Shown: positions 7,634 through 31,740 of the stretch, one piece after another | Layout: every line of letters starts with the position of its first letter | Numbering within the stretch: the stretch's first letter is position 1 | NCBI RefSeq assembly: GCF_902771595.1 | Contig: NZ_CACXXH010000001.1 | Length of the DNA: 64,000 bases | Source of the DNA: Fibrobacter succinogenes | GTDB taxonomy: Bacteria; Fibrobacterota; Fibrobacteria; Fibrobacterales; Fibrobacteraceae | Direction: 5' to 3' (one strand) | The notes under the pieces: generated by a model | The model's database searches: none | Seen by the model: the letters and a program-made list of their open reading frames with translations, nothing else | What the model was told of the DNA's origin: nothing | Translations under genes and position numbers: made by a program

Positions 7634-8739
7634 TTCTCAACAATCAAAGATTTTTCGTAAATATAGTCAACGTCTTCAGGGCTAATTCCCCCAGGAACAA
7701 GATCGAGCTTTGAACGGTTTACCTTCATGGACGCAGCAAACTTGTCCCGCATCTCGCGCGTAACAGAACACGTTCCGATAAGGCTACGCAGCATGGCAGC
7801 GAATTCTCCGACACTCCCAAGCGACAAAAGCGACAAAATTTTCTGGACATCTTCAGGGACGAACTTGCCACAAACTTCGGTGTAGGCGGCAAGGAAATAG
7901 CCGACCGCAGGGCCATGCGGAGTTCCCAAATGCACCGTAAGGTCGTAGCTCATGCCATGCGGCACAGAAGTACTTGTCTGCGCAATGGACATGCCCGCAA
8001 TCGTCGACGTGAGCATGAGTTTTTCATACAAGCCCTCATCGATCTTTTTCTCGGAAAGGAGGGCATCCTTGCACTCGCCCCAAAGTCTGAGCCCATATTC
8101 CGGACACATGCGGTTGAACTCGTTCGATTTCACATTGAGGATACTCTCTACCATATGCGAAAGAGCATCGACGGCGGTATTGACAATCAGTTGCTTTTTC
8201 GCAAATGCGAGATACTTTCCGTCTACAAGCGCAAGCTCTGGGAAAATCACATGCGGAATACTTTTCTTGAGACCGATTTTGTGATTCGTGATAATGGCAA
8301 CCGGAGTCGCTTCGGAACCCGTTCCACATGTCGTCGGAACCGCCACGACAGGAGCATGGTCCAGCCGATGACTCGGCACCTTGTGAAGGTCATCCGCATC
8401 CACGTCCGGATTCAAGAGGAGCAGTGCAGTCGCTTTTGCGGCATCAATCGCGGAACCGCCTCCGATACCGATTATAAAATCCGCCTTGAAGTCCCTTGCA
8501 GCGAGCGTCGCCTTCCGTACCGTATCCGTCGACGGATTTTCTTCGACCTCGTTGAAAACCTGAAACACGACATTCCCCGCATTCAGGACTTCCGTCACAT
8601 TGTCCAAGGATCCGTTCATCACCGCGGAATGGCGCCCGGTCATAATGAACGCACGTTTTCCTACCGCCAGCATATTCTGGGCATGGTTCTTGACACAATT
8701 TTTTTCAACATAGATATCTGTAGGAACAAAAAAACGCAT
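7630..8739 (-). CDS. Iron-containing (group III) alcohol dehydrogenase
   Basis: Motifs GGGSAIDAAKA and His-rich metal-site regions (DALSHMVES, VPHGMSY). I chose the ATG at 8739 (MRFFVPTDIY); the track start at 8760 is TTG. Confidence 0.85.
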   Translation of the reverse strand: MRFFVPTDIYVEKNCVKNHAQNMLAVGKRAFIMTGRHSAVMNGSLDNVTEVLNAGNVVFQVFNEVEENPSTDTVRKATLAARDFKADFIIGIGGGSAIDAAKATALLLLNPDVDADDLHKVPSHRLDHAPVVAVPTTCGTGSEATPVAIITNHKIGLKKSIPHVIFPELALVDGKYLAFAKKQLIVNTAVDALSHMVESILNVKSNEFNRMCPEYGLRLWGECKDALLSEKKIDEGLYEKLMLTSTIAGMSIAQTSTSVPHGMSYDLTVHLGTPHGPAVGYFLAAYTEVCGKFVPEDVQKILSLLSLGSVGEFAAMLRSLIGTCSVTREMRDKFAASMKVNRSKLDLVPGGISPEDVDYIYEKSLIVEK

Positions 8740-8834
8740 AATGAACTCCTTGTAATTCAAAACTAATAAAAGCAGGCCAAGCGTTTGACAGCAAAAGAAC
8801 TATATTTTGCGAAAAACAGTAATAGGATATATCT

Positions 8835-21279: not shown

Positions 21280-22572
21280 TCAATCCTTCACGCACCGCAC
21301 CGAAAGTGCAAATCGCTTCGATTGTTTGTCAAAAGCCACATACGAAGAACCAAGCCTTACCTGCACAGCAAGCGTATCATTTTCATCGGCAGCCCAATAG
21401 TAATCATAGACAGTCTCACCCCAACCATCGCTGCTATAAGAACGGTGCGCGACATCGTCAAATCCCAACGTATCAACTTCGCTGTCATTATGAAGAGATA
21501 CGAACATATCCACCAAGGTTCTCCACTCCGTAGAATCAGGCAAATGCCACCCTTCGGGGCAAGCCTCCTCCGCCTCCTTCCATAAGTAATACCAATTGGA
21601 CGAATCGCACACGCCAAGTAAATTCGTATGGCATATTACAGAATCCGACTTGTACCGCAAATTTTCTGCCAGCCACTCCTGGTCTTTCGTTATCAGCGTC
21701 CTGTAAACCTCGTCGTCCCGATTGTCCGTCATTTTTCCAAAAGAATACGGAGCTTCATACGAACTCGACGAAGACGATGCGACAACGGAGCTACTCGACG
21801 ACACCTTTTCAGCAGACTTCACACAGCGAAGGGAGTACGCATTTTCAAGATCGCGAGCGCTAAAATCAAACACATTTGATTTGTACGAAATATTGAATAT
21901 ATTGGCAAACCCAGCCAAGCTCGCATAATCCGTCCAAAAGTATGCGTCTACACCACCATTTATATACTTTCCTTTCACCCTCGCCCCAGCAGGCAATGCC
22001 GAAAAACCGATTTCGTCGGTATTGTTGTCATTTTCAAGCCACCCCGCAACCGACTTCAACTGGAACGGTTTCAGATTCTGGTTATACAACAAATGCTGAA
22101 CCTCATTCCAGCCGGGCACGACAAAGCCCTCCGGACAGATACCCTTCCTATCTGTCCCTAGGAATTTGTATGTCGAATCATAATCAACGGCAGCGAACCA
22201 TGAATAAAGCCTTCCGCCCTTCTTGCAGTTTTCAGGTTTATCCTCATAGCACCAGGATTTACCCTTCAGATTCGGAGTCTGCACGCTATCCGCATACTCC
22301 AAATTTTGTGCCATCCAGGTCATCCCGGCTATAGTAATAGTCCTGTAAACATGATTGTCTCGCTCATCCGTAATTTCGCCATATTCGATGTCTTGATTCT
22401 GGTATTCATCGGCATCGAGATCATTTGCGTACAAAAGCAAGCCTTCTTTTTCCCGTTCCTCCAAGACCGCATCGCTCACAACATAATCGTCTTCGGCACA
22501 AGCAGTCAATGCAAGGAGAACAAAAAGAACATGTATCGGCAAAAATTTTATTCTGGCCAACTTCATCATCAT
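21280..22572 (-). CDS. FISUMP-domain lipoprotein (2 domains)
   Basis: Lipobox LALTAC. There are two repeats of the Fibrobacter major paralogous domain pattern (D.R D..VYRT..I....WMA(Q/E)NL ... CP(E)GW.LP ... S(L/V)RCVK). The start overlaps the upstream gene's stop (ATGA). Confidence 0.85.
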   Translation of the reverse strand: MMMKLARIKFLPIHVLFVLLALTACAEDDYVVSDAVLEEREKEGLLLYANDLDADEYQNQDIEYGEITDERDNHVYRTITIAGMTWMAQNLEYADSVQTPNLKGKSWCYEDKPENCKKGGRLYSWFAAVDYDSTYKFLGTDRKGICPEGFVVPGWNEVQHLLYNQNLKPFQLKSVAGWLENDNNTDEIGFSALPAGARVKGKYINGGVDAYFWTDYASLAGFANIFNISYKSNVFDFSARDLENAYSLRCVKSAEKVSSSSSVVASSSSSSYEAPYSFGKMTDNRDDEVYRTLITKDQEWLAENLRYKSDSVICHTNLLGVCDSSNWYYLWKEAEEACPEGWHLPDSTEWRTLVDMFVSLHNDSEVDTLGFDDVAHRSYSSDGWGETVYDYYWAADENDTLAVQVRLGSSYVAFDKQSKRFALSVRCVKD

Positions 22573-25397
22573 TCATCCTTAAGGCAACGAATAGACGCAG
22601 CCACATCTTCATTCAATTCTTTGAATTCAATTCCCGAAGAAGAATCCGCATAGAATCCCGAAGCCACATGCTCAGCCCAGATGGAATAATCCCACGACCA
22701 GAAATGGGCAACACTCCCTTCCATATGAAGCGAGCCATCCGCACCATACCAATACCCCACCGGAACAGCATTCCAGCCATAAGCGTCGACGCCAGCATTG
22801 TCATCCCAGCCTTCAGATGACTTAAGCACATTCCAAGCGCCTTCCTTTCCACCGACAACGGCAAAAAGCTTTTTCCAATCGCGTATCGAAGGTATATGCC
22901 AGCCTTCGGGACATATGCCCCGAACCGGATCCTTAATATTGCAAGCCAACAAGCGCTCGCAACCCACGGTATTATCGCTATATTCACCCTTAGTATCTAC
23001 GGCTGTACTCCAGAAATAGAATCCCGCAGCGGGCGCATCCTCGTGAGCGAATTCAAGATTTTCAGCCATCCAAGTCTGCGTCCCTATTTGCACAGTCTTG
23101 TAGCTACGATCATCGCGTTCGTCCTTCAACGAACCGTAAGAACAGTAGTCCTTCTTCCCGGTCCGGCAAGGAGAAACAAGTTCCAGTTCCATTTTCTCAA
23201 TTTTAACAGCATCCGAAAGCAACGGAGAATCCATCACGCAACGAACAGAAAAACGCTGGCCCTTACCGAACGCACCGCCCTCGACATACGAGAACTCTTC
23301 CCCGCCAAAATAGACTCCACGGGCAGAACCGCTCGATATATCCGTTCCCGTCCAAAAGAAGGCGCCATTATTCTTGTTCGTGTAAAACGCATCACCGGGA
23401 TTACGCCCTGCCGGCAAAACGCAGAAACCATATTTATCCACCCCGTTTCCGTCCCATTTCCACTCCGACTTCGATTTAAGAGCAATGCTTGCCGACAAAG
23501 AATCTCCGACGGTTTCCACGAGATCATTCCATTCATCGGCAGTCGGGAGATGCCAACCCTTCGGACAAATCCCGCGGTGTTTCTCGATGGACTTGCAATA
23601 AAAATCGTCTATCGAAGAGAATACGCTCTTCGAGTCCATGGCGACATCCCAAGTATAGTACATCGCAAATGAATCGCATTTTCCCGTAGAATCCTTATAG
23701 CACGGATTGCGATTGGACTGCGCAGCATTCGATCCCGCAGCACTTTCATAATCAAGGTTCAGGTTCTCGGCCATCCAGGTCTGTTTCCCTATAGTCACAA
23801 TCTTGTAGTACTTGCCATCGCGCATATCCTTCAGATATCCATTTTCAGCGAACGAGGAATCGATACCATCGAAAGAAGGCTTCGCATATTCCGCCGTATC
23901 GGCGCTGCAATAGTGATAAACAGGCTTTTCCCCCAGAATGCAGCGAACGCTCGCAAGCCAAGACGAATGGACCCACATAAATTCGCTTTTGACACTCCCG
24001 TTTTTTAACCGCATCGTGTAGCGGGGACTGTCTTCTATCGACATCCAAAGATACGCTTCCTCGCCCCTATTAAAGAACGAATCGACTTCCGCACCCAAAG
24101 AACCCCGCCCCCCCGGTAAAACACCAAATCCGTAATAATCAATACCGTTTCCGTTATATAGCCCGGCATTCCACCTCTTGTTGCCACTCCAGGTATCCTG
24201 CCGCTTTTCGTAATTCACCCACAAGTCCTTCGATTTGAGCGTATAGCCCGATTTATCATCATTATTTGCTTTGCCAACCAGTTCAAGTAGCATTTCGTAA
24301 TCGACCTTCGAGGGCAAACGCCAGCCTGCAGGGCACGCATCTTTTTGCGCAAACGTACCCGTATACAGCATGCCATAAACCTTGCATAGCGAATCCGAAT
24401 GCGCATAGCATACCGACTCGGAGTCACTTGCAAAATACGCAAGATTTTCGGCCATCCAAGTCTGCGATCCTATTTTTACGGTCGCATATTTATGGCCATC
24501 GCGAGAATCCACGAACGACCCCTTTTCGACACTGGAGGGATCCATGAGCCCCGAAACATCCAAGGTATCTACCTCGATATCCAATACTTCCGCCTTGTTT
24601 TCGACGGAATCCTGCACGCAGCGAACAGAATAACCATATTGCTTCTGCTTGTCTTTGCTGGATTCATCATCCATGTCAAAAGAATGAATGACAACGGTAG
24701 CCTCGTTGGAAGAATACTCCGTCGAAGTCCAGAATACGCTTTCGAAACCAGCATTGTAAAAGTTCCCCCTCGCATAAAATCCGGTCGGCAACACGGTATA
24801 CCCAGACGCGTTATTACCTTCACCACCACTGCGCCAGCCCTTGTGCGCCTTGAAAGCCGATGCGGACTTGCCATGCATGATGCGCTGGAATTCGGAAAGC
24901 GACGGCAGGTGCCAACCATCAGGGCAAACGCCTTGCTGGAAAACAGAATGGAGGTATTGTGCCGACGTTGTGTATTTCCCATTATTATATACCGAAGCAA
25001 TATTCATGGCTGCAGCCCAAGAATAAAGTCTTCCACCCACATTGCAGAAATCCGGTTCGTCATTGTAGCACCAACTGCCATCCGCAATATTGGATACGAG
25101 CGAGCTGTCCGAAAAGTTGAGATTCTCCGCCATCCAGACGCTATTCCCGAGCTTCACCGTCTTGTAGACCTTTCCATCGCGCGGGTCCGTCATCTCGCCA
25201 TATTTTACCTTGGAGTTCATATATTCCGAGGCGCTTTCCGCCTGAGTATAGACATCGATATCATGAATGGACGGATCTTCATCGTTCCCCGGCTTGACAG
25301 GTTCTTCGTCGAAGCAGGCTGCGAAAAAGAGCGAAAGCAAAGCGAGGAATACGGGCTTTTTCAATGAGTTAATTTTTTCCTTCTTATTGCAATTCAT
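22569..25397 (-). CDS. FISUMP-domain lipoprotein (4 domains)
   Basis: Lipobox FFAAC. There are four units, each with WMAENL(N/A/E)(F/Y/L), CP.GW(H/R)(L/I)P(S/T) and S(V/I)RC(V/I/L). Confidence 0.85.
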   Translation of the reverse strand: MNCNKKEKINSLKKPVFLALLSLFFAACFDEEPVKPGNDEDPSIHDIDVYTQAESASEYMNSKVKYGEMTDPRDGKVYKTVKLGNSVWMAENLNFSDSSLVSNIADGSWCYNDEPDFCNVGGRLYSWAAAMNIASVYNNGKYTTSAQYLHSVFQQGVCPDGWHLPSLSEFQRIMHGKSASAFKAHKGWRSGGEGNNASGYTVLPTGFYARGNFYNAGFESVFWTSTEYSSNEATVVIHSFDMDDESSKDKQKQYGYSVRCVQDSVENKAEVLDIEVDTLDVSGLMDPSSVEKGSFVDSRDGHKYATVKIGSQTWMAENLAYFASDSESVCYAHSDSLCKVYGMLYTGTFAQKDACPAGWRLPSKVDYEMLLELVGKANNDDKSGYTLKSKDLWVNYEKRQDTWSGNKRWNAGLYNGNGIDYYGFGVLPGGRGSLGAEVDSFFNRGEEAYLWMSIEDSPRYTMRLKNGSVKSEFMWVHSSWLASVRCILGEKPVYHYCSADTAEYAKPSFDGIDSSFAENGYLKDMRDGKYYKIVTIGKQTWMAENLNLDYESAAGSNAAQSNRNPCYKDSTGKCDSFAMYYTWDVAMDSKSVFSSIDDFYCKSIEKHRGICPKGWHLPTADEWNDLVETVGDSLSASIALKSKSEWKWDGNGVDKYGFCVLPAGRNPGDAFYTNKNNGAFFWTGTDISSGSARGVYFGGEEFSYVEGGAFGKGQRFSVRCVMDSPLLSDAVKIEKMELELVSPCRTGKKDYCSYGSLKDERDDRSYKTVQIGTQTWMAENLEFAHEDAPAAGFYFWSTAVDTKGEYSDNTVGCERLLACNIKDPVRGICPEGWHIPSIRDWKKLFAVVGGKEGAWNVLKSSEGWDDNAGVDAYGWNAVPVGYWYGADGSLHMEGSVAHFWSWDYSIWAEHVASGFYADSSSGIEFKELNEDVAASIRCLKDE

Positions 25398-25416
25398 CGT
25401 TTTTCCCCTAAGAACG

Positions 25417-26250
25417 CTAAGTTTGCATCACGTATTTTTCTATGACCTCGGTAATTCCCGAATGGTTGTTGTCGTTTTGGGTCACATAATCAGCAACGTC
25501 CTTCGCCACCTGCGAGGCGTTCGCCATTGCGACACCGACACCAGCCGCCTCTATCATGGGGCAATCGTTTTCTTCGTCGCCCACGGCAATCGTATCGGCA
25601 ATAGACACCTTGTAATAATCCGCCATAAACCGCACCGCATCGCCCTTGTTGCTCTGCATATGCGAAAACTCGAGCATTTCAGGCTTGCTGAACACGTCGA
25701 ACAGCTTGCCCGCCGTAGTCTTGCGCATATCGGCGCGGAAATCCACGAGGCCCGAATGTTCGAAGGGCGTAATGATGTTCACCTTGATGGGCGGTTTAAC
25801 AACGACGTTTACAAACTCGCCGTAATACTCGCGGATATCCTTCACGACCACGTAATCCATCTTCATCAGCCGGCAATATGTCTTGAGCTGTTCCGTCTCG
25901 TATTCCGAAACAACCAGGTCGCCCGAGTAGGTATGCGCGTGCATTCCGCGGGCATGCGCCGCATCCATTATGGCCTTGACCTCATCGACGGGAATGTAGC
26001 GCGTAAGGATGGGTTTCTGTTCACCGCAATCGTAGATGAGCCCGCCGTTGAAACTTACAAGCAAAAAACCCGGTTCCAAAAAACCGTACTTCTCGGCAAT
26101 CTGCTTCACGCTGGTGAGCGGCCGACCCGTTGTCATCACGAACTTGTGTCCCGCATCAATCATCGTGCGAATAGAGCGCATATCGGTATCCGAGATGCGC
26201 TTGTCATCGGTCAGCAAAGTACCGTCCAAGTCCGTAAAGAATATCTTCAT
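25417..26250 (-). CDS. Cof-type HAD-IIB phosphatase
   Basis: MKIFFTDLDGTLL (DxD motif), TTGRP and GDEENDCPM. I chose the ATG at 26250; the track start at 26253 is GTG. Confidence 0.85.
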   Translation of the reverse strand: MKIFFTDLDGTLLTDDKRISDTDMRSIRTMIDAGHKFVMTTGRPLTSVKQIAEKYGFLEPGFLLVSFNGGLIYDCGEQKPILTRYIPVDEVKAIMDAAHARGMHAHTYSGDLVVSEYETEQLKTYCRLMKMDYVVVKDIREYYGEFVNVVVKPPIKVNIITPFEHSGLVDFRADMRKTTAGKLFDVFSKPEMLEFSHMQSNKGDAVRFMADYYKVSIADTIAVGDEENDCPMIEAAGVGVAMANASQVAKDVADYVTQNDNNHSGITEVIEKYVMQT

Positions 26251-26356
26251 CACTATACAATATAGTATTCAGACAAACGCAAATTAACAAAACATCTCAT
26301 TTTGCCGCTTTTCGGGCATTTTTAGAAGATAAGATGCAATTTTTACGGATACAAGT

Positions 26357-27142
26357 TTAATCTTTGACGCAGCGGACTTTATTTCTTTTATTTTTTTCAG
26401 TCCCAATATAGTTTGCATTTTCCATAGCCATCTGCAAAATCAAGCCGCCCGCATGTGTATCGGATTCATCCCAAGAACTCCAAAAAAGCACAGAATAGCC
26501 CAAACTCAAGGGAGAGCCACATGAAGAACTTGTATAACCGGCAGGATAAGCCGAAAATCCCAAAGCATCCGTTCCATCGTTACTTGCCATTCCCATGTAC
26601 TGCCAACCAGTCGTAGTCATAAGATCAAAGCCTTCGCCAGCAGATTCAATCAAGGTGTTGAAATCGTCCATACTAGGCAAATGCCAACCTTCAGGACATA
26701 TGCCCCGCACAAGGGACGTCAAATTGCAGAGAATGCTGTCGCCACAGGCTATGCCCTTTGCGCTTAGAGCGACGCTGTCAATCGCATCGGCCCACGTATA
26801 ATATTGACCTTGCCCGAGGACATCGACATAACTTCCTTCGGTGCAGGCGGATTCTTCCGTCGCAAAATTGAGGTTTTCGGCCATCCACCATTGATTTCCA
26901 ATTTTCACGGTCTTGTATGTCCGGCCATCGCGCTCGTCCGTCAGCGTTCCGTACTCGCAATCATCATGCAATTGCGTCTTGCAACGCGTTGCCAACGTAG
27001 TTGGGCCAGCCGAACTGCTGCTAAGCCTTTCGCTGGATACGGATTTTCCACCATCCGGACGTACCGCGAAATCGCTGCCGTCGTCGCCACAGGCGGCAAA
27101 CATCGCCGCACCAAAAAGAATGTAAAGCCAATGGGAACGCAT
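26357..27142 (-). CDS. FISUMP-domain lipoprotein (1 domain)
   Basis: Lipobox MFAAC, with DGRTYKTVKIGNQWWMAENLNF, CPEGWHLPS and VRCVKD. Confidence 0.85.
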   Translation of the reverse strand: MRSHWLYILFGAAMFAACGDDGSDFAVRPDGGKSVSSERLSSSSAGPTTLATRCKTQLHDDCEYGTLTDERDGRTYKTVKIGNQWWMAENLNFATEESACTEGSYVDVLGQGQYYTWADAIDSVALSAKGIACGDSILCNLTSLVRGICPEGWHLPSMDDFNTLIESAGEGFDLMTTTGWQYMGMASNDGTDALGFSAYPAGYTSSSCGSPLSLGYSVLFWSSWDESDTHAGGLILQMAMENANYIGTEKNKRNKVRCVKD

Positions 27143-27172
27143 CTTTTCTCCTATTATGCTTCAAATATAATA

Positions 27173-27198
27173 AAGCTCCCTGTTGATTCAGGGAGCTT
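27173..27198 (-). terminator. 10-bp stem hairpin (AAGCTCCCTG / CAGGGAGCTT), possible intrinsic terminator
   Basis: Perfect inverted repeat with a 6-nt loop, followed on the minus strand by TATTATATTT. It lies between the chimeric pseudogene and the 26357..27142 gene. Confidence 0.5.
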
Positions 27199-27220
27199 TT
27201 AAGGATTTTACAGCAATTGT

Positions 27221-27238
27221 CTACAGGCTCTACAGGCT
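27221..27238. repeat. 9-nt perfect tandem duplication CTACAGGCT x2
   Basis: Read directly. It abuts the TAG of the hppA-derived fragment. Confidence 0.7.
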
Positions 27239-27456
27239 AGAAGAACATGTCTCCGAAGCGGACGATGACGCCGGCGAACACGACACTCACCATGGTCATG
27301 AGCTTGATGAGGATGTTGAGCGAGGGGCCGGCCCGTGGTCATCACGAACTTGTGGCCCGCATCGATTATCGCACGGATAGAACGCATGTCGGTATCCGAA
27401 ATGCGCTTGTCATCAGTCAGGAGCGTACCGTCAAGGTCTGTGAACAGAATTTTCAT
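27237..27456 (-). pseudogene. Chimeric relic: the first 44 codons of a Cof-type HAD gene fused (frame-shifted) to the last 32 codons plus stop of an hppA gene
   Basis: 27325-27456 matches codons 1-44 of 25417..26250 (MKILFTDLDGTLLTDDKRISDTDMRSIRAIIDAGHKFVMTTGRP). 27237-27332 matches the hppA 3' end and encodes AGPSLNILIKLMTMVSVVFAGVIVRFGDMFF*, identical to hppA. The junction is at about 27318-27336, inside the shared GAGCG..GCCG microhomology. The 82-aa track ORF (27208..27456) reads the hppA part out of frame. Confidence 0.8.
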
Positions 27457-27555
27457 CTTTCCCTAATATAGCATTCAAATAGGGACAAAATAGCGGTATA
27501 ACGCAAAATACCGCCCAGCGGTCGATATCAGGCGATAAAGTGCAGAATTATGGAA

Positions 27556-29247
27556 TTAGTCCTTGACGCAGCGGACGGAGAATCCGAACGCTTTAGTATC
27601 GCCGCCATCAGTCGACAGATACGCAATATCATTGTTATTACCCACACTCATATTGTACACTTCTTGATTTTCCTCTGTGGAACTCCAAAAGCCTGCGACG
27701 GTCGCCTCATGATCATCGAAGCAAGGATCCCCCCAGGAACCAAACATGTATTCCCCAGGAAGCGCCGAGAAGCCGGACTCATTCGTACCAGTGCCTCCCA
27801 AGTACCAGCCAAATGCAGACTTGAGCGCCGAACCGGTCTTTGAATTCCCACCGACGGCAGTCAATAGAGTTTCAAATTCCGTTTTGCTCGGCAAGTGCCA
27901 TCCATCCGGGCAAACGCCCTGAATATTCCCCGACGGCAGGGAGCACGTTTTCCCATAGCCGCATTCCTCCTCAGTTTTGCCAACCGCATCCGCCCACCAA
28001 TAAAGACGGCCGTATTTCTCGCAAAATTTCGTAGAATCGATAAAGCAGTGGCTAGAGGCCGTTTCAAAATTGAGATTTTCCGCCATCCATACCTGGTCTC
28101 CAATTTTCACGGTCTTGTACGTTCGACCGTCGCGGGAATCTGTCAACTCGCCATATTCAACATTCGGGTTGAACGGACTCTCGCTAGACAGGGATGACTG
28201 TTTTTCACCCTGGAGACAACGGACAGAATAAGCATTTTGCTTGGACACTCGCCACCAAGACTCATACGTTTCACTATAGTACAAACGCATCACGTACGTT
28301 TCATCGTCGTTGAACTCCGACGCATTCCAAAAATCAACCACAACGCCCACACCGCCATATTTGCCATTGTCCATACCGCCAGCAGGTAATGCAGAAAAAC
28401 CAGAAATATTCGTATCATCATAAGTTTGCACATAGTCAAAATATGAACCGACTACAAGAAGAGGATTCCAAACGGCACTAGACTTAAGCGCAACACCAGC
28501 GTAAGCTTTGTTTGAAACAGCTGTAGTCAACAAGGTATCCCATTCGGCCCAGCGTGGCAAGTGCCACCCGCTCGGGCAAGCATCCACAGCAGCATACCAA
28601 GTGTAGAGCCGGCCAAACTTGGAGCAGCTACTTGCGGAATCTCCATAGCAATAACTATTTGCCGATTCGTAGTTCAGATTCTCCGCCATCCACACCTGAT
28701 TGCCAATTTTCACGGTCCTGTAGGTCTGGCCATCGCGGGAATCGGTCAGTTCACCATACGAAATTTTCGGGTTAAAAATACTTACACTACTGCTAGACTC
28801 ACTCGTCTCGCTTGAACTTGACACCGGTGTAACGCTGGAAGAAGAATTTGCAGAACTGCTGCTTGATTTTGCACTGCTGCTCGTCATGGCGGCCTCGGAG
28901 CCGCCATCTCCCTTACTGCTACTGGACACACTTGTCTCGCCATCGCTCGACTGCGGTGTGACGCTAGAGGAAGACCTGCTAGAGGAACTACTTTTCTCCT
29001 TAACCCATTTTTCATTCACGCACACATAGGTGGCAGAATTTTCCACCACATATGCCTCCATCCCCTCCCGTATGTCGTTACAATCGGGAAGTTCACCAAA
29101 AGTATTCACTTCCAAGGAGAGGGGGGATCCAAATATATTTTCTGTTAAGGGATCAGTTGCGTTTTTGTCGCCACAGGCAGAAAATGCGACAAGGGCAATT
29201 GTCGCCAAAAACGGCATCAGGATTTTGGACGGAAATTCCTTCGCCAT
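27556..29247 (-). CDS. FISUMP-domain lipoprotein (2 domains) with a Ser-rich linker
   Basis: I chose the ATG at 29247, preceded by AGGAGG (MAKEFPSKILMPFLATIALVAFSAC); the track start at 29286 is TTG. There are two units with WMAENLN(Y/F), CP(S/D)GWHLP and SVRC(L/V). Confidence 0.85.
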   Translation of the reverse strand: MAKEFPSKILMPFLATIALVAFSACGDKNATDPLTENIFGSPLSLEVNTFGELPDCNDIREGMEAYVVENSATYVCVNEKWVKEKSSSSSRSSSSVTPQSSDGETSVSSSSKGDGGSEAAMTSSSAKSSSSSANSSSSVTPVSSSSETSESSSSVSIFNPKISYGELTDSRDGQTYRTVKIGNQVWMAENLNYESANSYCYGDSASSCSKFGRLYTWYAAVDACPSGWHLPRWAEWDTLLTTAVSNKAYAGVALKSSAVWNPLLVVGSYFDYVQTYDDTNISGFSALPAGGMDNGKYGGVGVVVDFWNASEFNDDETYVMRLYYSETYESWWRVSKQNAYSVRCLQGEKQSSLSSESPFNPNVEYGELTDSRDGRTYKTVKIGDQVWMAENLNFETASSHCFIDSTKFCEKYGRLYWWADAVGKTEEECGYGKTCSLPSGNIQGVCPDGWHLPSKTEFETLLTAVGGNSKTGSALKSAFGWYLGGTGTNESGFSALPGEYMFGSWGDPCFDDHEATVAGFWSSTEENQEVYNMSVGNNNDIAYLSTDGGDTKAFGFSVRCVKD

Positions 29248-29329
29248 AGTGACCTCCTGTACATAAACTATACTTTTTGATTTCAAACGTCAACAGGCCG
29301 ATTACAGCTTTTACCCAGAAATCGGCCAG

Positions 29330-29371
29330 TAACTAATAACTAATAACCAATGACTATTGACTAATGACCAT
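29330..29371 (-). repeat. Heptad-periodic tandem repeat, 6 units. Plus strand: TAACTAA TAACTAA TAACCAA TGACTAT TGACTAA TGACCAT. Sense strand: ATGGTCA TTAGTCA ATAGTCA TTGGTTA TTAGTTA TTAGTTA
   Basis: Read directly. It starts at the last base of the hppA stop codon and fills the proximal part of the hppA-FISUMP spacer. Confidence 0.75.
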
Positions 29372-31740
29372 TAAAAAAACATATCGCCAAAGCGGACGAT
29401 GACGCCGGCAAACACGACGCTCACCATGGTCATGAGCTTGATGAGGATGTTGAGCGAAGGCCCGGCGGTATCCTTGAACGGGTCGCCCACGGTATCGCCC
29501 ACCACGGCAGCCTTGTGCGTATCGGAGCCCTTGCCACCGTAGTTGCCCTTCTCAATATACTTCTTCGCATTGTCCCAGGCACCGCCCGCGTTATTGAGCA
29601 TCGTCGCAAGCGCAAAGCCGCACGCAAGTCCGCCCGCCAACAGGCCGAACACGCCCGCAACACCCATGAACAGGCCCACCAGCACGGGCACCACCACAGC
29701 AAGCACCGAAGGCAAAATCATTTCGCGCTGGGCACCCGTCGTCGAGATTTCCACACAACGCGCATAATCGGGTTCACCCGTCCCTTCCATGATTCCGGGA
29801 ATCTCGCGGAACTGGCGACGCACTTCTTCCACCATCGCGCTGGCGGCTCGACCCACCGCCTTGATGGTGAGCGCGCAGAACACGAACGTCATCATCGCAC
29901 CGATGAACAGGCCCCCAAGCAACATGGGGTTCATCAAATTCAAGTTATAGATGTGCATGAAGTCCACATAGTTCACCTTGCTTGCGACCAACCCGAGCAG
30001 GTCCCCGCTCTCAGAAATCGCACGCGTACCGCCGTCCAAGAACTTCACGCCGGCAATACCCGAAAGCGCATTCGCAAGGTCGTTCGCACCGTTCGCGAAC
30101 GCCACTGAACCCACCTTCCACACGCCCTCCGCAGAGGATGCGAGGTGCCCGAGCCAAATCTTCACTTCTTCTACGTAAGATGCGAGAAGCGCCATCGCGG
30201 TAAGGGCGGCAGAACCGATCGCGAATCCCTTGCCCGTCGCAGCCGTGGTATTCCCGAGCATGTCGAGTTCATCGGTACGGGCGCGCACTTCGGGATCGAG
30301 ACCAGCCATTTCGGCGTTACCGCCCGCATTGTCCGCAATCGGCCCGAACGCATCGGTCGCGAGCGTGATGCCGAGCGTACTCAGCATGCCCACCGCGGCA
30401 AAGCCCACGCCGTAGAGGCCCATCGCCATGTCGCTAAATCCGCCAGCACACCCGAACGCAGAAATAATGCCGATAACAATCGTCACCACCGGAAGCCCCG
30501 TGGAGAACATGCCGACGGAAATGCCGTCGATAATCGTCGTCGCGGCCCCGAGCTTGGCCTGGCCCGCGATACCGCGCGTGGGCTTGTACGCATCGGAAGT
30601 ATAGTGCTCGGTAAACTGCCCGATAAGGATACCCGCAGCAAGGCCCGAAAGCACCGAGCCGAAAATGCCCATTGAAATGAAGTCAAACTTCACCAGCACG
30701 AGAAGCGCCACGAGGATAAGCACCGAAGACCCGAGCGTTCCCGTAAGGAGAGAACGCAGCAGAGACTTTGTGTCGGCGGTTTCTTTCGTACGTACAGCGA
30801 AGATGCCCGCGAGCGAAAGGAGTATTCCGATTGCAGCCACCACCATCGGGGCAATCACGAGCTTGATACCGCCCATCGGGAGGGCCGCCCCGAGAGCCGC
30901 CGTCGAGAGAATGGAACCGCAGTAAGATTCGTAAAGGTCGGCGCCCATCCCGGCGACGTCCCCCACGTTGTCACCGACGTTATCCGCAATGGTCGCCGGG
31001 TTGCGCGGGTCATCCTCGGGGATGCCCGCCTCGACCTTGCCCACAAGGTCGGCGCCGACATCGGCCGCCTTCGTGTAGATGCCTCCACCCACGCGGGCAA
31101 AGAGAGCCTGCAGGGAAGCGCCCATGCCGAAGGTAAGCATGGTCGTGGTGATTTCCACCATCTTCGCATGCGCCCATTCCGCATTGTTCACCATGTCGGC
31201 AGTCCACGCCCCGAGAGAGAGCTTGGATGCCACATCGGCGCCAAAGTTCCACACGTTGTTATCGTAAATGTAGTTGAGCAAGAAGAACCAAGCCGAAATA
31301 TCCAGGAGGCCAAAGCCCACCACCACAAGGCCCATCACGGCTCCGCTACGGAACGCGATGACAAGCCCGCGGTTCAAACTGCTGATGGCACCGTTCGCCG
31401 TGCGGGAACTCGCGTACGTCGCCGTCTTCATGCCCAAAAAGCCGCAAAGCCCGCTGAAGAAGCCGCCCGTAAGGAAGGCTACCGGCACGAACGGGTTCTG
31501 GATGCCCATGACGGCAAGCACCACGAATATAAGGAAAAGCACCGCAAAAACGATGGAAACTGTCTTGTATTGCCGCCGGAGGTAGGCAAACGCCCCTACG
31601 CGCACAAAATGCGCAATCGCCTTCATTTTCTCATTGCCGTCGGGCTGCCGCTTCATGAACCTGTAAAAGAAAAACGCCATGGCGAGCGCAAACAACGCTG
31701 CAACCGGGACCAGGAACCAATAAGCTGGAATAGTAAGCAT
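29371..31740 (-). CDS. hppA: Membrane-bound pyrophosphate-energised cation pump (H+/Na+-PPase)
   Basis: 789 aa and polytopic. Canonical PPase motifs are GGGIYTKAADVGADLVGKVE, DNVGDNVGD and DTVGDPFKDTAGPSLN. Confidence 0.92.
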   Translation of the reverse strand: MLTIPAYWFLVPVAALFALAMAFFFYRFMKRQPDGNEKMKAIAHFVRVGAFAYLRRQYKTVSIVFAVLFLIFVVLAVMGIQNPFVPVAFLTGGFFSGLCGFLGMKTATYASSRTANGAISSLNRGLVIAFRSGAVMGLVVVGFGLLDISAWFFLLNYIYDNNVWNFGADVASKLSLGAWTADMVNNAEWAHAKMVEITTTMLTFGMGASLQALFARVGGGIYTKAADVGADLVGKVEAGIPEDDPRNPATIADNVGDNVGDVAGMGADLYESYCGSILSTAALGAALPMGGIKLVIAPMVVAAIGILLSLAGIFAVRTKETADTKSLLRSLLTGTLGSSVLILVALLVLVKFDFISMGIFGSVLSGLAAGILIGQFTEHYTSDAYKPTRGIAGQAKLGAATTIIDGISVGMFSTGLPVVTIVIGIISAFGCAGGFSDMAMGLYGVGFAAVGMLSTLGITLATDAFGPIADNAGGNAEMAGLDPEVRARTDELDMLGNTTAATGKGFAIGSAALTAMALLASYVEEVKIWLGHLASSAEGVWKVGSVAFANGANDLANALSGIAGVKFLDGGTRAISESGDLLGLVASKVNYVDFMHIYNLNLMNPMLLGGLFIGAMMTFVFCALTIKAVGRAASAMVEEVRRQFREIPGIMEGTGEPDYARCVEISTTGAQREMILPSVLAVVVPVLVGLFMGVAGVFGLLAGGLACGFALATMLNNAGGAWDNAKKYIEKGNYGGKGSDTHKAAVVGDTVGDPFKDTAGPSLNILIKLMTMVSVVFAGVIVRFGDMFF

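Follow-up and report, generated by a model that had tools for sequence, protein, structure and literature searches.

A 64,000-nt stretch of Fibrobacter succinogenes DNA (contig NZ_CACXXH010000001.1 of assembly GCF_902771595.1; hereafter the window) carries two FISUMP genes between the housekeeping genes hppA (membrane H+-pyrophosphatase) and HAD (a Cof-type phosphatase), and these are separated by a chimeric relic in which the 5′ end of HAD is fused to the 3′ end of hppA. This relic probably originated when one illegitimate join stacked two allelic hppA-FISUMP-HAD units, and later homologous recombination via the arms of the scar swapped the FISUMP cassettes and overwrote the arms. Taken as a whole, the hppA-HAD intergenic region of this rumen Fibrobacter clade is best explained as a cassette site driven by recombination; Fibrobacter is a genus with an unusually large family of FISUMP surface lipoproteins. 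Gene order is given throughout along the minus strand, in the direction of transcription, and the junction found in the window (HAD codon 44::hppA) is referred to as type 1.

The locus comprises intact hppA (29371..31740), a left cassette designated alpha (27457..29370) with the gene FISUMP2, the relic, a right cassette designated zeta (26251..27236) with the gene FISUMP1, and intact HAD (25417..26250), all on the minus strand. The HAD arm of the relic (27326..27456) contains HAD codons 1–43 plus two bases of codon 44 and includes the catalytic motif DLDGT, while the hppA arm (27237..27325) contains the last 29–31 hppA codons with a TAG stop, +1 out of the HAD frame. Their functional counterparts are the first 132 nt of HAD (26119-26250) and the last 96 nt of hppA (29371-29466). 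A three-way alignment of relic, HAD and hppA placed the junction at 27322..27329; GGCC (27326-27329) is common to both parents, with 7 of 8 positions matching over GGCC[G/C]CTC (27322-27329), the variable base of which is C in the window and G in locus L131. The original prediction had placed a microhomology at 27318-27336: a join at a short match was indeed found, and its position has been refined. A HAD 5′ fragment that abuts a hppA 3′ fragment (codons −31 to stop) at a short microhomology is the structure of a join point, and both the arms and the gene order bear out the earlier interpretation as a recombination scar with tandem-duplication topology.

Within the window, the two units align only in the two arms, in approximately 21 nt preceding the HAD ATG and in the conserved FISUMP motif (BLASTN E values 9e-34 and 5e-37), in agreement with the earlier claim that homology stops outside the arms. 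Self-BLAST of the whole 64 kb revealed no further non-FISUMP duplication. FISUMP1 and FISUMP2 share 40% amino acid (aa) identity and their intergenic DNA is unalignable; the units are not copies of one another, as a simple in situ tandem duplication would have left them.

The scar encodes neither the HAD nor the hppA product and is dead as a gene. Its chimeric open reading frame (ORF; 27208..27456, 82 aa) consists of HAD codons 1–44 followed by frameshifted hppA sequence, and the Pfam Hydrolase_3 match of the product is confined to residues 4–47, confirming the predicted +1 shift and the loss of both proteins. In RefSeq this chimera is named “HAD family hydrolase [Fibrobacter succinogenes]” (WP_173383071.1). 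That name calls for caution, as the protein is a truncated, frameshifted fragment, which should be annotated as a pseudogene or misc_feature.

Analysis of the substitution pattern indicated that both arms evolved under purifying selection in functional genes, as had been proposed. The translation of 27237-27332 (minus strand) is AGPSLNILIKLMTMVSVVFAGVIVRFGDMFF*, the same as that of the hppA end (29371-29466; last 31 codons plus stop), and the DNA sequences differ by nine synonymous third-position changes and by TAA>TAG. The Nei-Gojobori method gave nine synonymous and no nonsynonymous differences (sd=9, nd=0), i.e. a nonsynonymous divergence (dN) of 0 and a synonymous divergence (dS) of approximately 0.61. 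Compared with 26119-26250, the HAD arm (27325-27456, corresponding to HAD codons 1–44) has 24 nucleotide differences spread over 21 codons: 20 of these differences fall at position 3, four at position 1 and none at position 2. Three conservative amino acid changes result (L/F, A/T and I/M), with dS~1.33, dN~0.05 and a dN/dS ratio (omega) of approximately 0.04. Both sets of counts agree with those originally reported. With the relic copy alone taken as unconstrained, a neutrality test gave so few nonsynonymous differences a probability of P=1.6e-4 (hppA arm) and 3.9e-5 (HAD arm). The codon alignments thus reject neutral proportions, and for the bulk of the differences omega is 0 and 0.04, not near 1 as in a neutrally decaying pseudogene.

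The large distance of the HAD arm from its counterpart arises mostly because the resident intact HAD 5′ end is an outlier. It lies 20–26 nt from every other functional allele except that of L001 (11 nt), its codons 2–12 represent an unusual allele, and its nt 37–137 are the same as in L001, giving a mosaic identity profile. The relic arm is 9–15 nt from the functional alleles, among which the median pairwise difference is 8 nt.

The possibility of assembly chimerism was examined by exact-protein look-ups. Contigs from 13 different ENA metagenome assemblies span the junction and are colinear with the window (98.4–99.95% identity); since 13 independent assemblies cross it, the junction is not an assembly artefact. 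A scan of JGI metagenome contigs with a degenerate junction pattern gave no match, a null result that says little, the collection evidently being without the scar-bearing contig L049.

The identical junction was found in five array configurations, one of them that of the window (left alpha, right zeta). In L003, the metagenome-assembled genome (MAG) RUG14609, the scar lies between beta on the left and, on the right, a gamma/delta hybrid that is 99.5% identical to L050 from nt 141. In L049 (JGI contig, 1.3 kb) it is flanked by beta and gamma (the latter 99.3–99.7% identical to L005/L058), in L131 (ENA contig, 2.7 kb) by alpha (99.3% to L001) and beta, and in L132 (ENA contig, 0.56 kb) by beta and delta. 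Homology between the window and L003 is restricted to the 237-nt scar, both flanks of which are unrelated, and the genes flanking the locus in scar-bearing lineages differ by 7–13%. In other lineages alpha, beta, gamma and delta were each also seen alone between an intact hppA and an intact HAD; zeta was not.

The HAD protein was used as query against species-representative genomes and contigs from metagenomes to identify relatives. This analysis revealed 19 further loci with hppA and HAD as neighbours, all from a clade with HAD at least 88% identical to that of the window. The two genes flank the site in the window, L001–L003, L005, L032 and 13 metagenome loci. What lies at this position varies between strains from nothing to whole-gene cassettes of six types. 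The sole cassette is alpha in L001 and L057 (1.9 kb), beta in L032, L053, L056 and L126 (1.7 kb), gamma in L005, L058 and L059 (1.0 kb), delta in L050 (1.0 kb) and epsilon in L060 and L118 (1.75 kb). Empty sites of 48–157 nt were found in L002 and L061–L063. The “empty” spacers of L061 (7280-7327) and L002 (9844-10000) retain the last FISUMP codons (...TCCGTCCGTTACGTCCAGGAC...), and that of L002 also holds a 107-nt alpha 3′ region; because of these FISUMP 3′ remnants, they are considered secondary deletions and not virgin sites. In locus L051 (6622-10000; 3.4 kb), hppA and HAD enclose a pair of FISUMP genes of 519 and 534 aa, the latter beta-like at 88%. This locus has no scar: a search of the 85-nt spacer between its two cassettes revealed no trace of a decayed HAD/hppA scar, so either cassettes can be stacked in another way or a scar was cleanly removed.

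The cassettes are more conserved than their surroundings. Alpha of the window is 98.9% identical to alpha of L057, with flanks at 88.3% (hppA) and 87.2% (HAD), and 97.6% identical to alpha of L001; the delta sequences of L003 and L050 contrast in the same way with flanks of 93%. High identity sets in within the 3′ end of hppA and extends as far as HAD codon 13. The left unit of the window (hppA, FISUMP2, HAD-N′) is colinear with the single-cassette loci L001 and L057 (97.6–98.9%) and the right unit is foreign to them, in support of the earlier proposal that an allelic unit from another lineage was placed beside the resident one. The accompanying proposal, that two complete loci collapsed by deletion, is neither needed nor specifically supported. 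No integrase or transposase was called within ~10 kb (precomputed Pfam on genes), and a repeat search detected no terminal inverted repeats bounding the cassettes. To judge from these identity profiles, the cassettes move between lineages.

In a sister group (L004, L006, L030, L033, L052, L064 and L066; 92–94% HAD protein identity) the gene preceding HAD is not hppA but one encoding a RelA_SpoT domain. The DNA upstream of HAD in L004 and L006 matches window positions 7649-8740 in inverted orientation, which points to a rearrangement breakpoint close to the HAD 5′ boundary.

The sequences of the arms link each scar both to the other scars and to the adjacent cassettes. On the hppA side, codons 2–18 of the arm (a 51-nt core including AGT16) are constant in all type-1 relics with the exception of one base in L131 (codon 3, at the junction, CGC for CCC). 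Functional hppA alleles vary at eight of the core codons, and those linked to gamma or delta carry AGC16, GTT18 or AAT6. The invariance of this core therefore speaks for a junction that arose once and is identical by descent. Further out, the arms vary with the adjacent cassette. Codons 1–13 of the HAD arm are the same in the window relic and in the alpha-linked functional HAD of L001 and L057, while the HAD arm of L132 is 2 nt from the beta-linked functional HAD of L032 up to codon 43. The last seven codons plus TAG of the window hppA arm equal those of the beta-type functional alleles L032 and L053; zeta, which adjoins this beta-type end, has the 5′ region most like that of beta (~70% over its first ~376 nt) and was observed only in the window species. 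Gamma-adjacent scars share ...GGC AAT ATG TTC TTC TGA with the gamma-only locus L058, and the TGA stop occurs in gamma contexts only.

The scars do not form a clade, as each arm is nearer to some functional allele than to other scars. The HAD arm of L049 is 5 nt from functional alleles vs. 12 nt from the window scar, and the window hppA arm is 4 nt from L032 vs. 7 nt from the L049 scar. Differences between scars fall predominantly at third positions (16 of 19 and 17 of 21; P~1e-5). The relics thus share a junction, differ at third positions and resemble functional alleles, and for this reason their coding-like appearance is best attributed to repeated homologous exchange with functional alleles and not to youth. 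The original prediction that the fragments were parts of functional genes until recently is contradicted by the same junction in at least four other configurations with flanks diverged by 7–13%. Changes private to scars number at most three synonymous (ACT14, CGT28 and ACC40) and at most three nonsynonymous (I30 in the window type, C25 in L003 and A20V in L037/L038). This proportion is unlikely under omega ~0.04 (P~0.016) and compatible with neutrality, with the reservation that the counts are very small and that the pool of functional alleles left out L042. Since ACT14, CGT28 and I30 also occur in the functional HAD tract of L042, some of these changes may be functional variants.

Tracts shared between scars and functional genes were also identified. 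The functional HAD of L042, a contig otherwise 99.8% identical to the window, contains a relic-type tract of at least 64 nt (codons 14–35) with T29A and M30I. Conversely, the scar variants L043 and L131 have intact-type bases at codons 40–42, and L131 also at codon 44, up to the join. The functional HAD of L001 is of relic type at codons 1–13 and of window-intact type from codon 14, a pattern that a crossover between two HAD 5′ repeats would leave. Relative to L001, the HAD of the window is a mosaic of identical stretches of 100 and 200 nt flanked by sequence of ~88% identity; such mosaic identity between genomes is a sign of exchange, though not of its route.

Illegitimate joins of the same topology recur at the HAD 5′ boundary at different positions. 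In type 2 (L129, 1349-1573, and L130, 282-506; ENA ERZ12202610 and ERZ12202543, respectively) HAD codon 57 is fused to the last 13 hppA codons with a microhomology of 0–1 nt. This join sits between a diverged alpha-like cassette and alpha, and its hppA arm is 100% identical to the functional hppA allele of the window. In type 3 (L127, 595-975; ENA ERZ27280636) HAD codons 1–93 run in frame into the last 31 codons of a RelA_SpoT-domain gene at the microhomology TCAAGGCnATCA (11/12), in the context of genomes of the L004/L006 type (cf. L006, 8961-10283); the L127 contig ends 39 nt past the join. As these joins lie at other positions, chance reuse of the type-1 position is unlikely, and the claim that the scar is a footprint of FISUMP stacking gains two further junctions of the same topology.

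Two other fusions were noted. In L128 (312-572; ENA ERZ2272784, coverage 1.4) HAD codons 1–61 are fused to what appears by eye to be internal threonyl-tRNA-synthetase-like (thrS-like) sequence, and in protein P0007, from a more distant clade, HAD 1–56 is fused to an apparent histidine-kinase C-terminus. The contigs that carry them are very short and of low coverage, and the fusions may have arisen in assembly; L128 was set aside as a possible chimeric contig.

The following course of events would account for these observations. A single illegitimate join at GGCC would have fused HAD codon 44 to the last ~30 hppA codons, either as a tandem-duplication join point that later diversified, or by homology-facilitated illegitimate recombination of incoming allelic DNA that was anchored in HAD and joined at GGCC. 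Such a join would stack two hppA-3′/cassette/HAD-5′ units in tandem and leave both housekeeping genes undamaged. Each scar arm, being a direct repeat of a functional gene end, could then serve as an internal homology arm, and either cassette might be replaced by a double crossover in the full gene on one side and the scar arm on the other. In addition, the scar together with a cassette could be inserted into, or deleted from, single-cassette genomes, and short tracts could pass between the scar and the functional gene. Each event would overwrite part of an arm with functional-allele sequence, which would explain why the differences from the resident genes and among the scars are almost all synonymous although the scar itself is unselected.

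Several points weigh against this reconstruction. All comparators are MAGs or metagenome contigs, those of L049, L131 and L132 being 0.56–2.7 kb long, and complete arrays come from the window species and L003 only. The proposed single origin draws on one shared junction and the 51-nt core. Exchange in L042 could run from relic to gene or from gene to relic, and the comparison of L001 with the window fits either a deletion of scar and zeta from a window-like array or their insertion into an L001-like genome. The order of events is inferred, and the route of recombination, by transformation or otherwise, would require natural competence or another means by which Fibrobacter exchanges DNA. For RecA-type recombination, arms of 96 and 132 nt offer little length. 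Some of the mosaics could have been produced by strain-mixing when the metagenomes were assembled, although the arms have no common k-mers of sufficient length at the k values used by assemblers. Finally, 19 of the ~24 sampled hppA-HAD locus types are without the scar and L051 stacks two cassettes without one, which means that the scar is not required for stacking.

Synonymous-only arms (dN=0 and omega ~0.04) and a left unit colinear with L001 and L057 would also be expected of a young event private to this genome, in which diverged loci, or a resident and an imported locus, were joined too recently for decay. This is distinctly unlikely, as the identical junction occurs in L003, L049, L131 and L132 with other cassettes and diverged flanks, and scars differing by 19–21 nt testify to a junction with a history. 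Youth of every scar could be reconciled with the wide distribution if the HAD44::hppA junction formed anew at each stacking from the functional alleles then present. Arms as close to functional alleles as that of L132, the 7/8 microhomology, which could favour the site, and the recurrence of illegitimate joins at this locus (types 2 and 3) are all in keeping with such a hotspot. However, the other joins used HAD codon 57/hppA codon −13 and HAD codon 93/RelA_SpoT, indicating no site determinism, and the 51-nt core with AGT16 is present in all type-1 scars, even beside gamma and delta, whose linked alleles differ from it. We therefore regard a recurrent hotspot as unlikely. An old in situ tandem duplication of a single hppA-3′/FISUMP/HAD-5′ unit, with a junction copy decaying neutrally, has the observed topology in its favour and is nonetheless very improbable: the cassettes are unrelated paralogues (40% aa identity) with unalignable intergenic DNA and have near-identical single-copy counterparts elsewhere, and neutral decay is at odds with the substitution pattern (P values above). 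Duplication is thus rejected as a complete explanation, even if it could have made the first junction.

It is also conceivable that the scar is kept by selection, as a 44-aa HAD N-terminus, a 20-aa peptide of the C-terminal hppA helix (MTMVSVVFAGVIVRFGDMFF) or a promoter-plus-terminator decoy. Both original frames are open and coding-like in all copies, the stop stays a stop (TAG, TGA), the sequence upstream of HAD is undamaged and matches that of the functional HAD of L001 exactly, and a terminator follows the scar. Nevertheless, functional alleles carry almost every variant seen in the scars, as would follow from import and not from selection in place; the scars contain nonsynonymous changes (I30, C25 and A20V) and most related genomes are without one. 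The original prediction regarded conservation of the chimeric ORF in relatives as an argument against a recombination scar: the scar is conserved but its product is not, since the chimeric proteins measure 78, 82, 85 and 122 aa and have unrelated tails, unlike a functional small protein. Maintenance by selection accordingly seems improbable to us. An assembly chimera in the source genome might be suspected in a repeat-bearing region of a lineage known mostly from metagenomes. With 13 independent colinear assemblies from different samples, and with repeats too short and too diverged (80–90%) to mislead an assembler, this can hardly be entertained.

As for the other features of the locus, the ORF list assigns 789 aa to the hppA product (Pfam H_PPase, E=1e-256), and the gene is 95% identical in nucleotide sequence to that of L001. 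The HAD product has 277 aa (Pfam Hydrolase_3, E=1e-53). Cassette alpha consists of a leader, FISUMP2 and a 3′ region including ~107 nt of HAD upstream sequence. FISUMP2 (27556-29247, minus strand; 563 aa from the ATG) contains two Fib_succ_major domains (Pfam PF09603) and a lipoprotein signal (...FSAC). Cassette zeta consists of a leader, FISUMP1 and a spacer to HAD; FISUMP1 (26357-27142, minus strand; 261 aa) contains one Fib_succ_major domain (Pfam) and a lipobox (...FAAC). FISUMP proteins are predicted lipoproteins according to the family description given in PMC11661182, and the lipoboxes of both proteins agree with this prediction.

In the alpha leader just past the hppA stop (~29325-29345, minus strand), the 7-nt unit GTTATTA has one copy more in the window than in L130 and L057. 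In the strains L043 (2472-4163) and L046 (3007-4698) of the same species, a T>A change creates a stop at FISUMP2 codon 276 (window ~28420), splitting the gene into genes of 275 and 272 aa with one domain each; gene calls alone, and not sequence, suggest a similar split in L044. This represents either pseudogenisation or domain fission within the population. Downstream of HAD there are more FISUMP genes, one of 942 aa with several domains (22569-25397, minus strand), followed in related contigs by one of 429 aa. The flank downstream of HAD is ~82% identical to L001, vs. 93–96% upstream of the scar; the divergent tract therefore runs well beyond HAD.

A consensus scan predicted a terminator-like hairpin after FISUMP2, upstream of the relic HAD start (27492..27515, minus strand), with the same sequence as that upstream of the functional HAD in L001. 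A second, strong terminator-like hairpin (27172..27199, minus strand; 11-bp stem, T-rich tail) lies 37 nt past the relic stop and is the terminator brought along by the imported hppA 3′ end. The block TGAATGCTATATTA (direct repeat family D5) is located upstream of the relic ATG (27464..27477, minus strand) and also upstream of intact HAD (26258-26271). A CTATATT-centred block of this kind precedes HAD in most of the relatives compared, L054 being without it, and is presumably akin to the TAnnTTTG-type box of Bacteroidetes-type promoters. A sigma-70 promoter scan gave matches no higher than the shuffle expectation, so that statements on promoters rest on this conserved TAnnTTTG-like block. An Rfam scan of 25300-29600 gave no match at the gathering score (an archaeal snoRNA, with 25 bits vs. 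49, was taken as a chance hit).

If a single join followed by exchange through its arms is the correct explanation, the locus is a nucleotide-level natural record of FISUMP exchange between lineages, of the join that stacked two cassettes and of how this join came to serve again as a homology arm. A caution follows as well: a pseudogene fragment with synonymous differences only need not be young, as recombination with functional alleles gives the same signature. A broader proposition, for and against which we find the arguments evenly balanced, is that the scar provides each cassette with direct repeats derived from housekeeping genes. FISUMP genes would then be recombinase-free, stackable and swappable units of an integron-like array operating on homologous recombination alone, and every swap would keep the scar “fresh”. 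If this is true, such scars would constitute one route of FISUMP paralogue diversification between Fibrobacter strains.

The locus can be compared with several known systems. As in a tandem-duplication join point, the start of the downstream gene is joined to the end of the upstream gene across a short, GC-rich match (GGCC; 4 nt, or 7 of 8), and both intact genes are retained. In contrast to such join points, the units are different alleles and paralogues, and the join has persisted and spread among lineages without collapse. For homology-facilitated illegitimate recombination, a microhomology range of 3–10 bp, into which the match at the type-1 join falls, is given in the passage of PMC6382021 that summarises de Vries & Wackernagel 2002 and Prudhomme et al. 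2002.

A promoter-proximal or truncated, non-functional copy that stays coding-like via tract exchange, such as that suggested by the relic-type tract in the functional HAD of L042, is reminiscent of pilS/pilE of Neisseria. In that system silent partial-gene cassettes exchange with the expressed gene by gene conversion. In Fibrobacter, by comparison, variability, and presumably selection, concerns the FISUMP cassettes that the arms enclose and not the arms, and adaptive exchange with HAD or hppA is unsupported. The ordered array of single-gene, independently terminated cassettes that differ between strains recalls an integron; however, there is no integrase and there are no attC/attI-like inverted repeats, and exchange would proceed via homology to housekeeping-gene ends. 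By these features the locus is not an integron.

The closest parallel is with minimal mobile elements (MMEs) of Neisseria, as defined in the text quoted in PMC3898611 after Saunders & Snyder 2002. The hppA-HAD site fits that definition: it lies between two conserved genes, holds variable whole-gene cassettes or none, and shows neither mobility genes nor element ends. That cassettes enter by homologous recombination in the flanking genes, as in MMEs, is suggested by cassette tracts ending inside hppA and HAD, the cassettes being more alike than the flanks. In Neisseria, the host exchanges chromosomal DNA by natural transformation. The Fibrobacter site differs from them in its host phylum (Fibrobacterota), in cassettes that all belong to one paralogous lipoprotein family, and in the stacking of two cassettes via a chimeric scar of flank-gene ends, which apparently acts as a third homology arm. 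Relative to the known systems, the difference lies in the tandem stacking of cassettes via a scar made of flank-gene ends, together with the apparent reuse of this scar as an internal homology arm.

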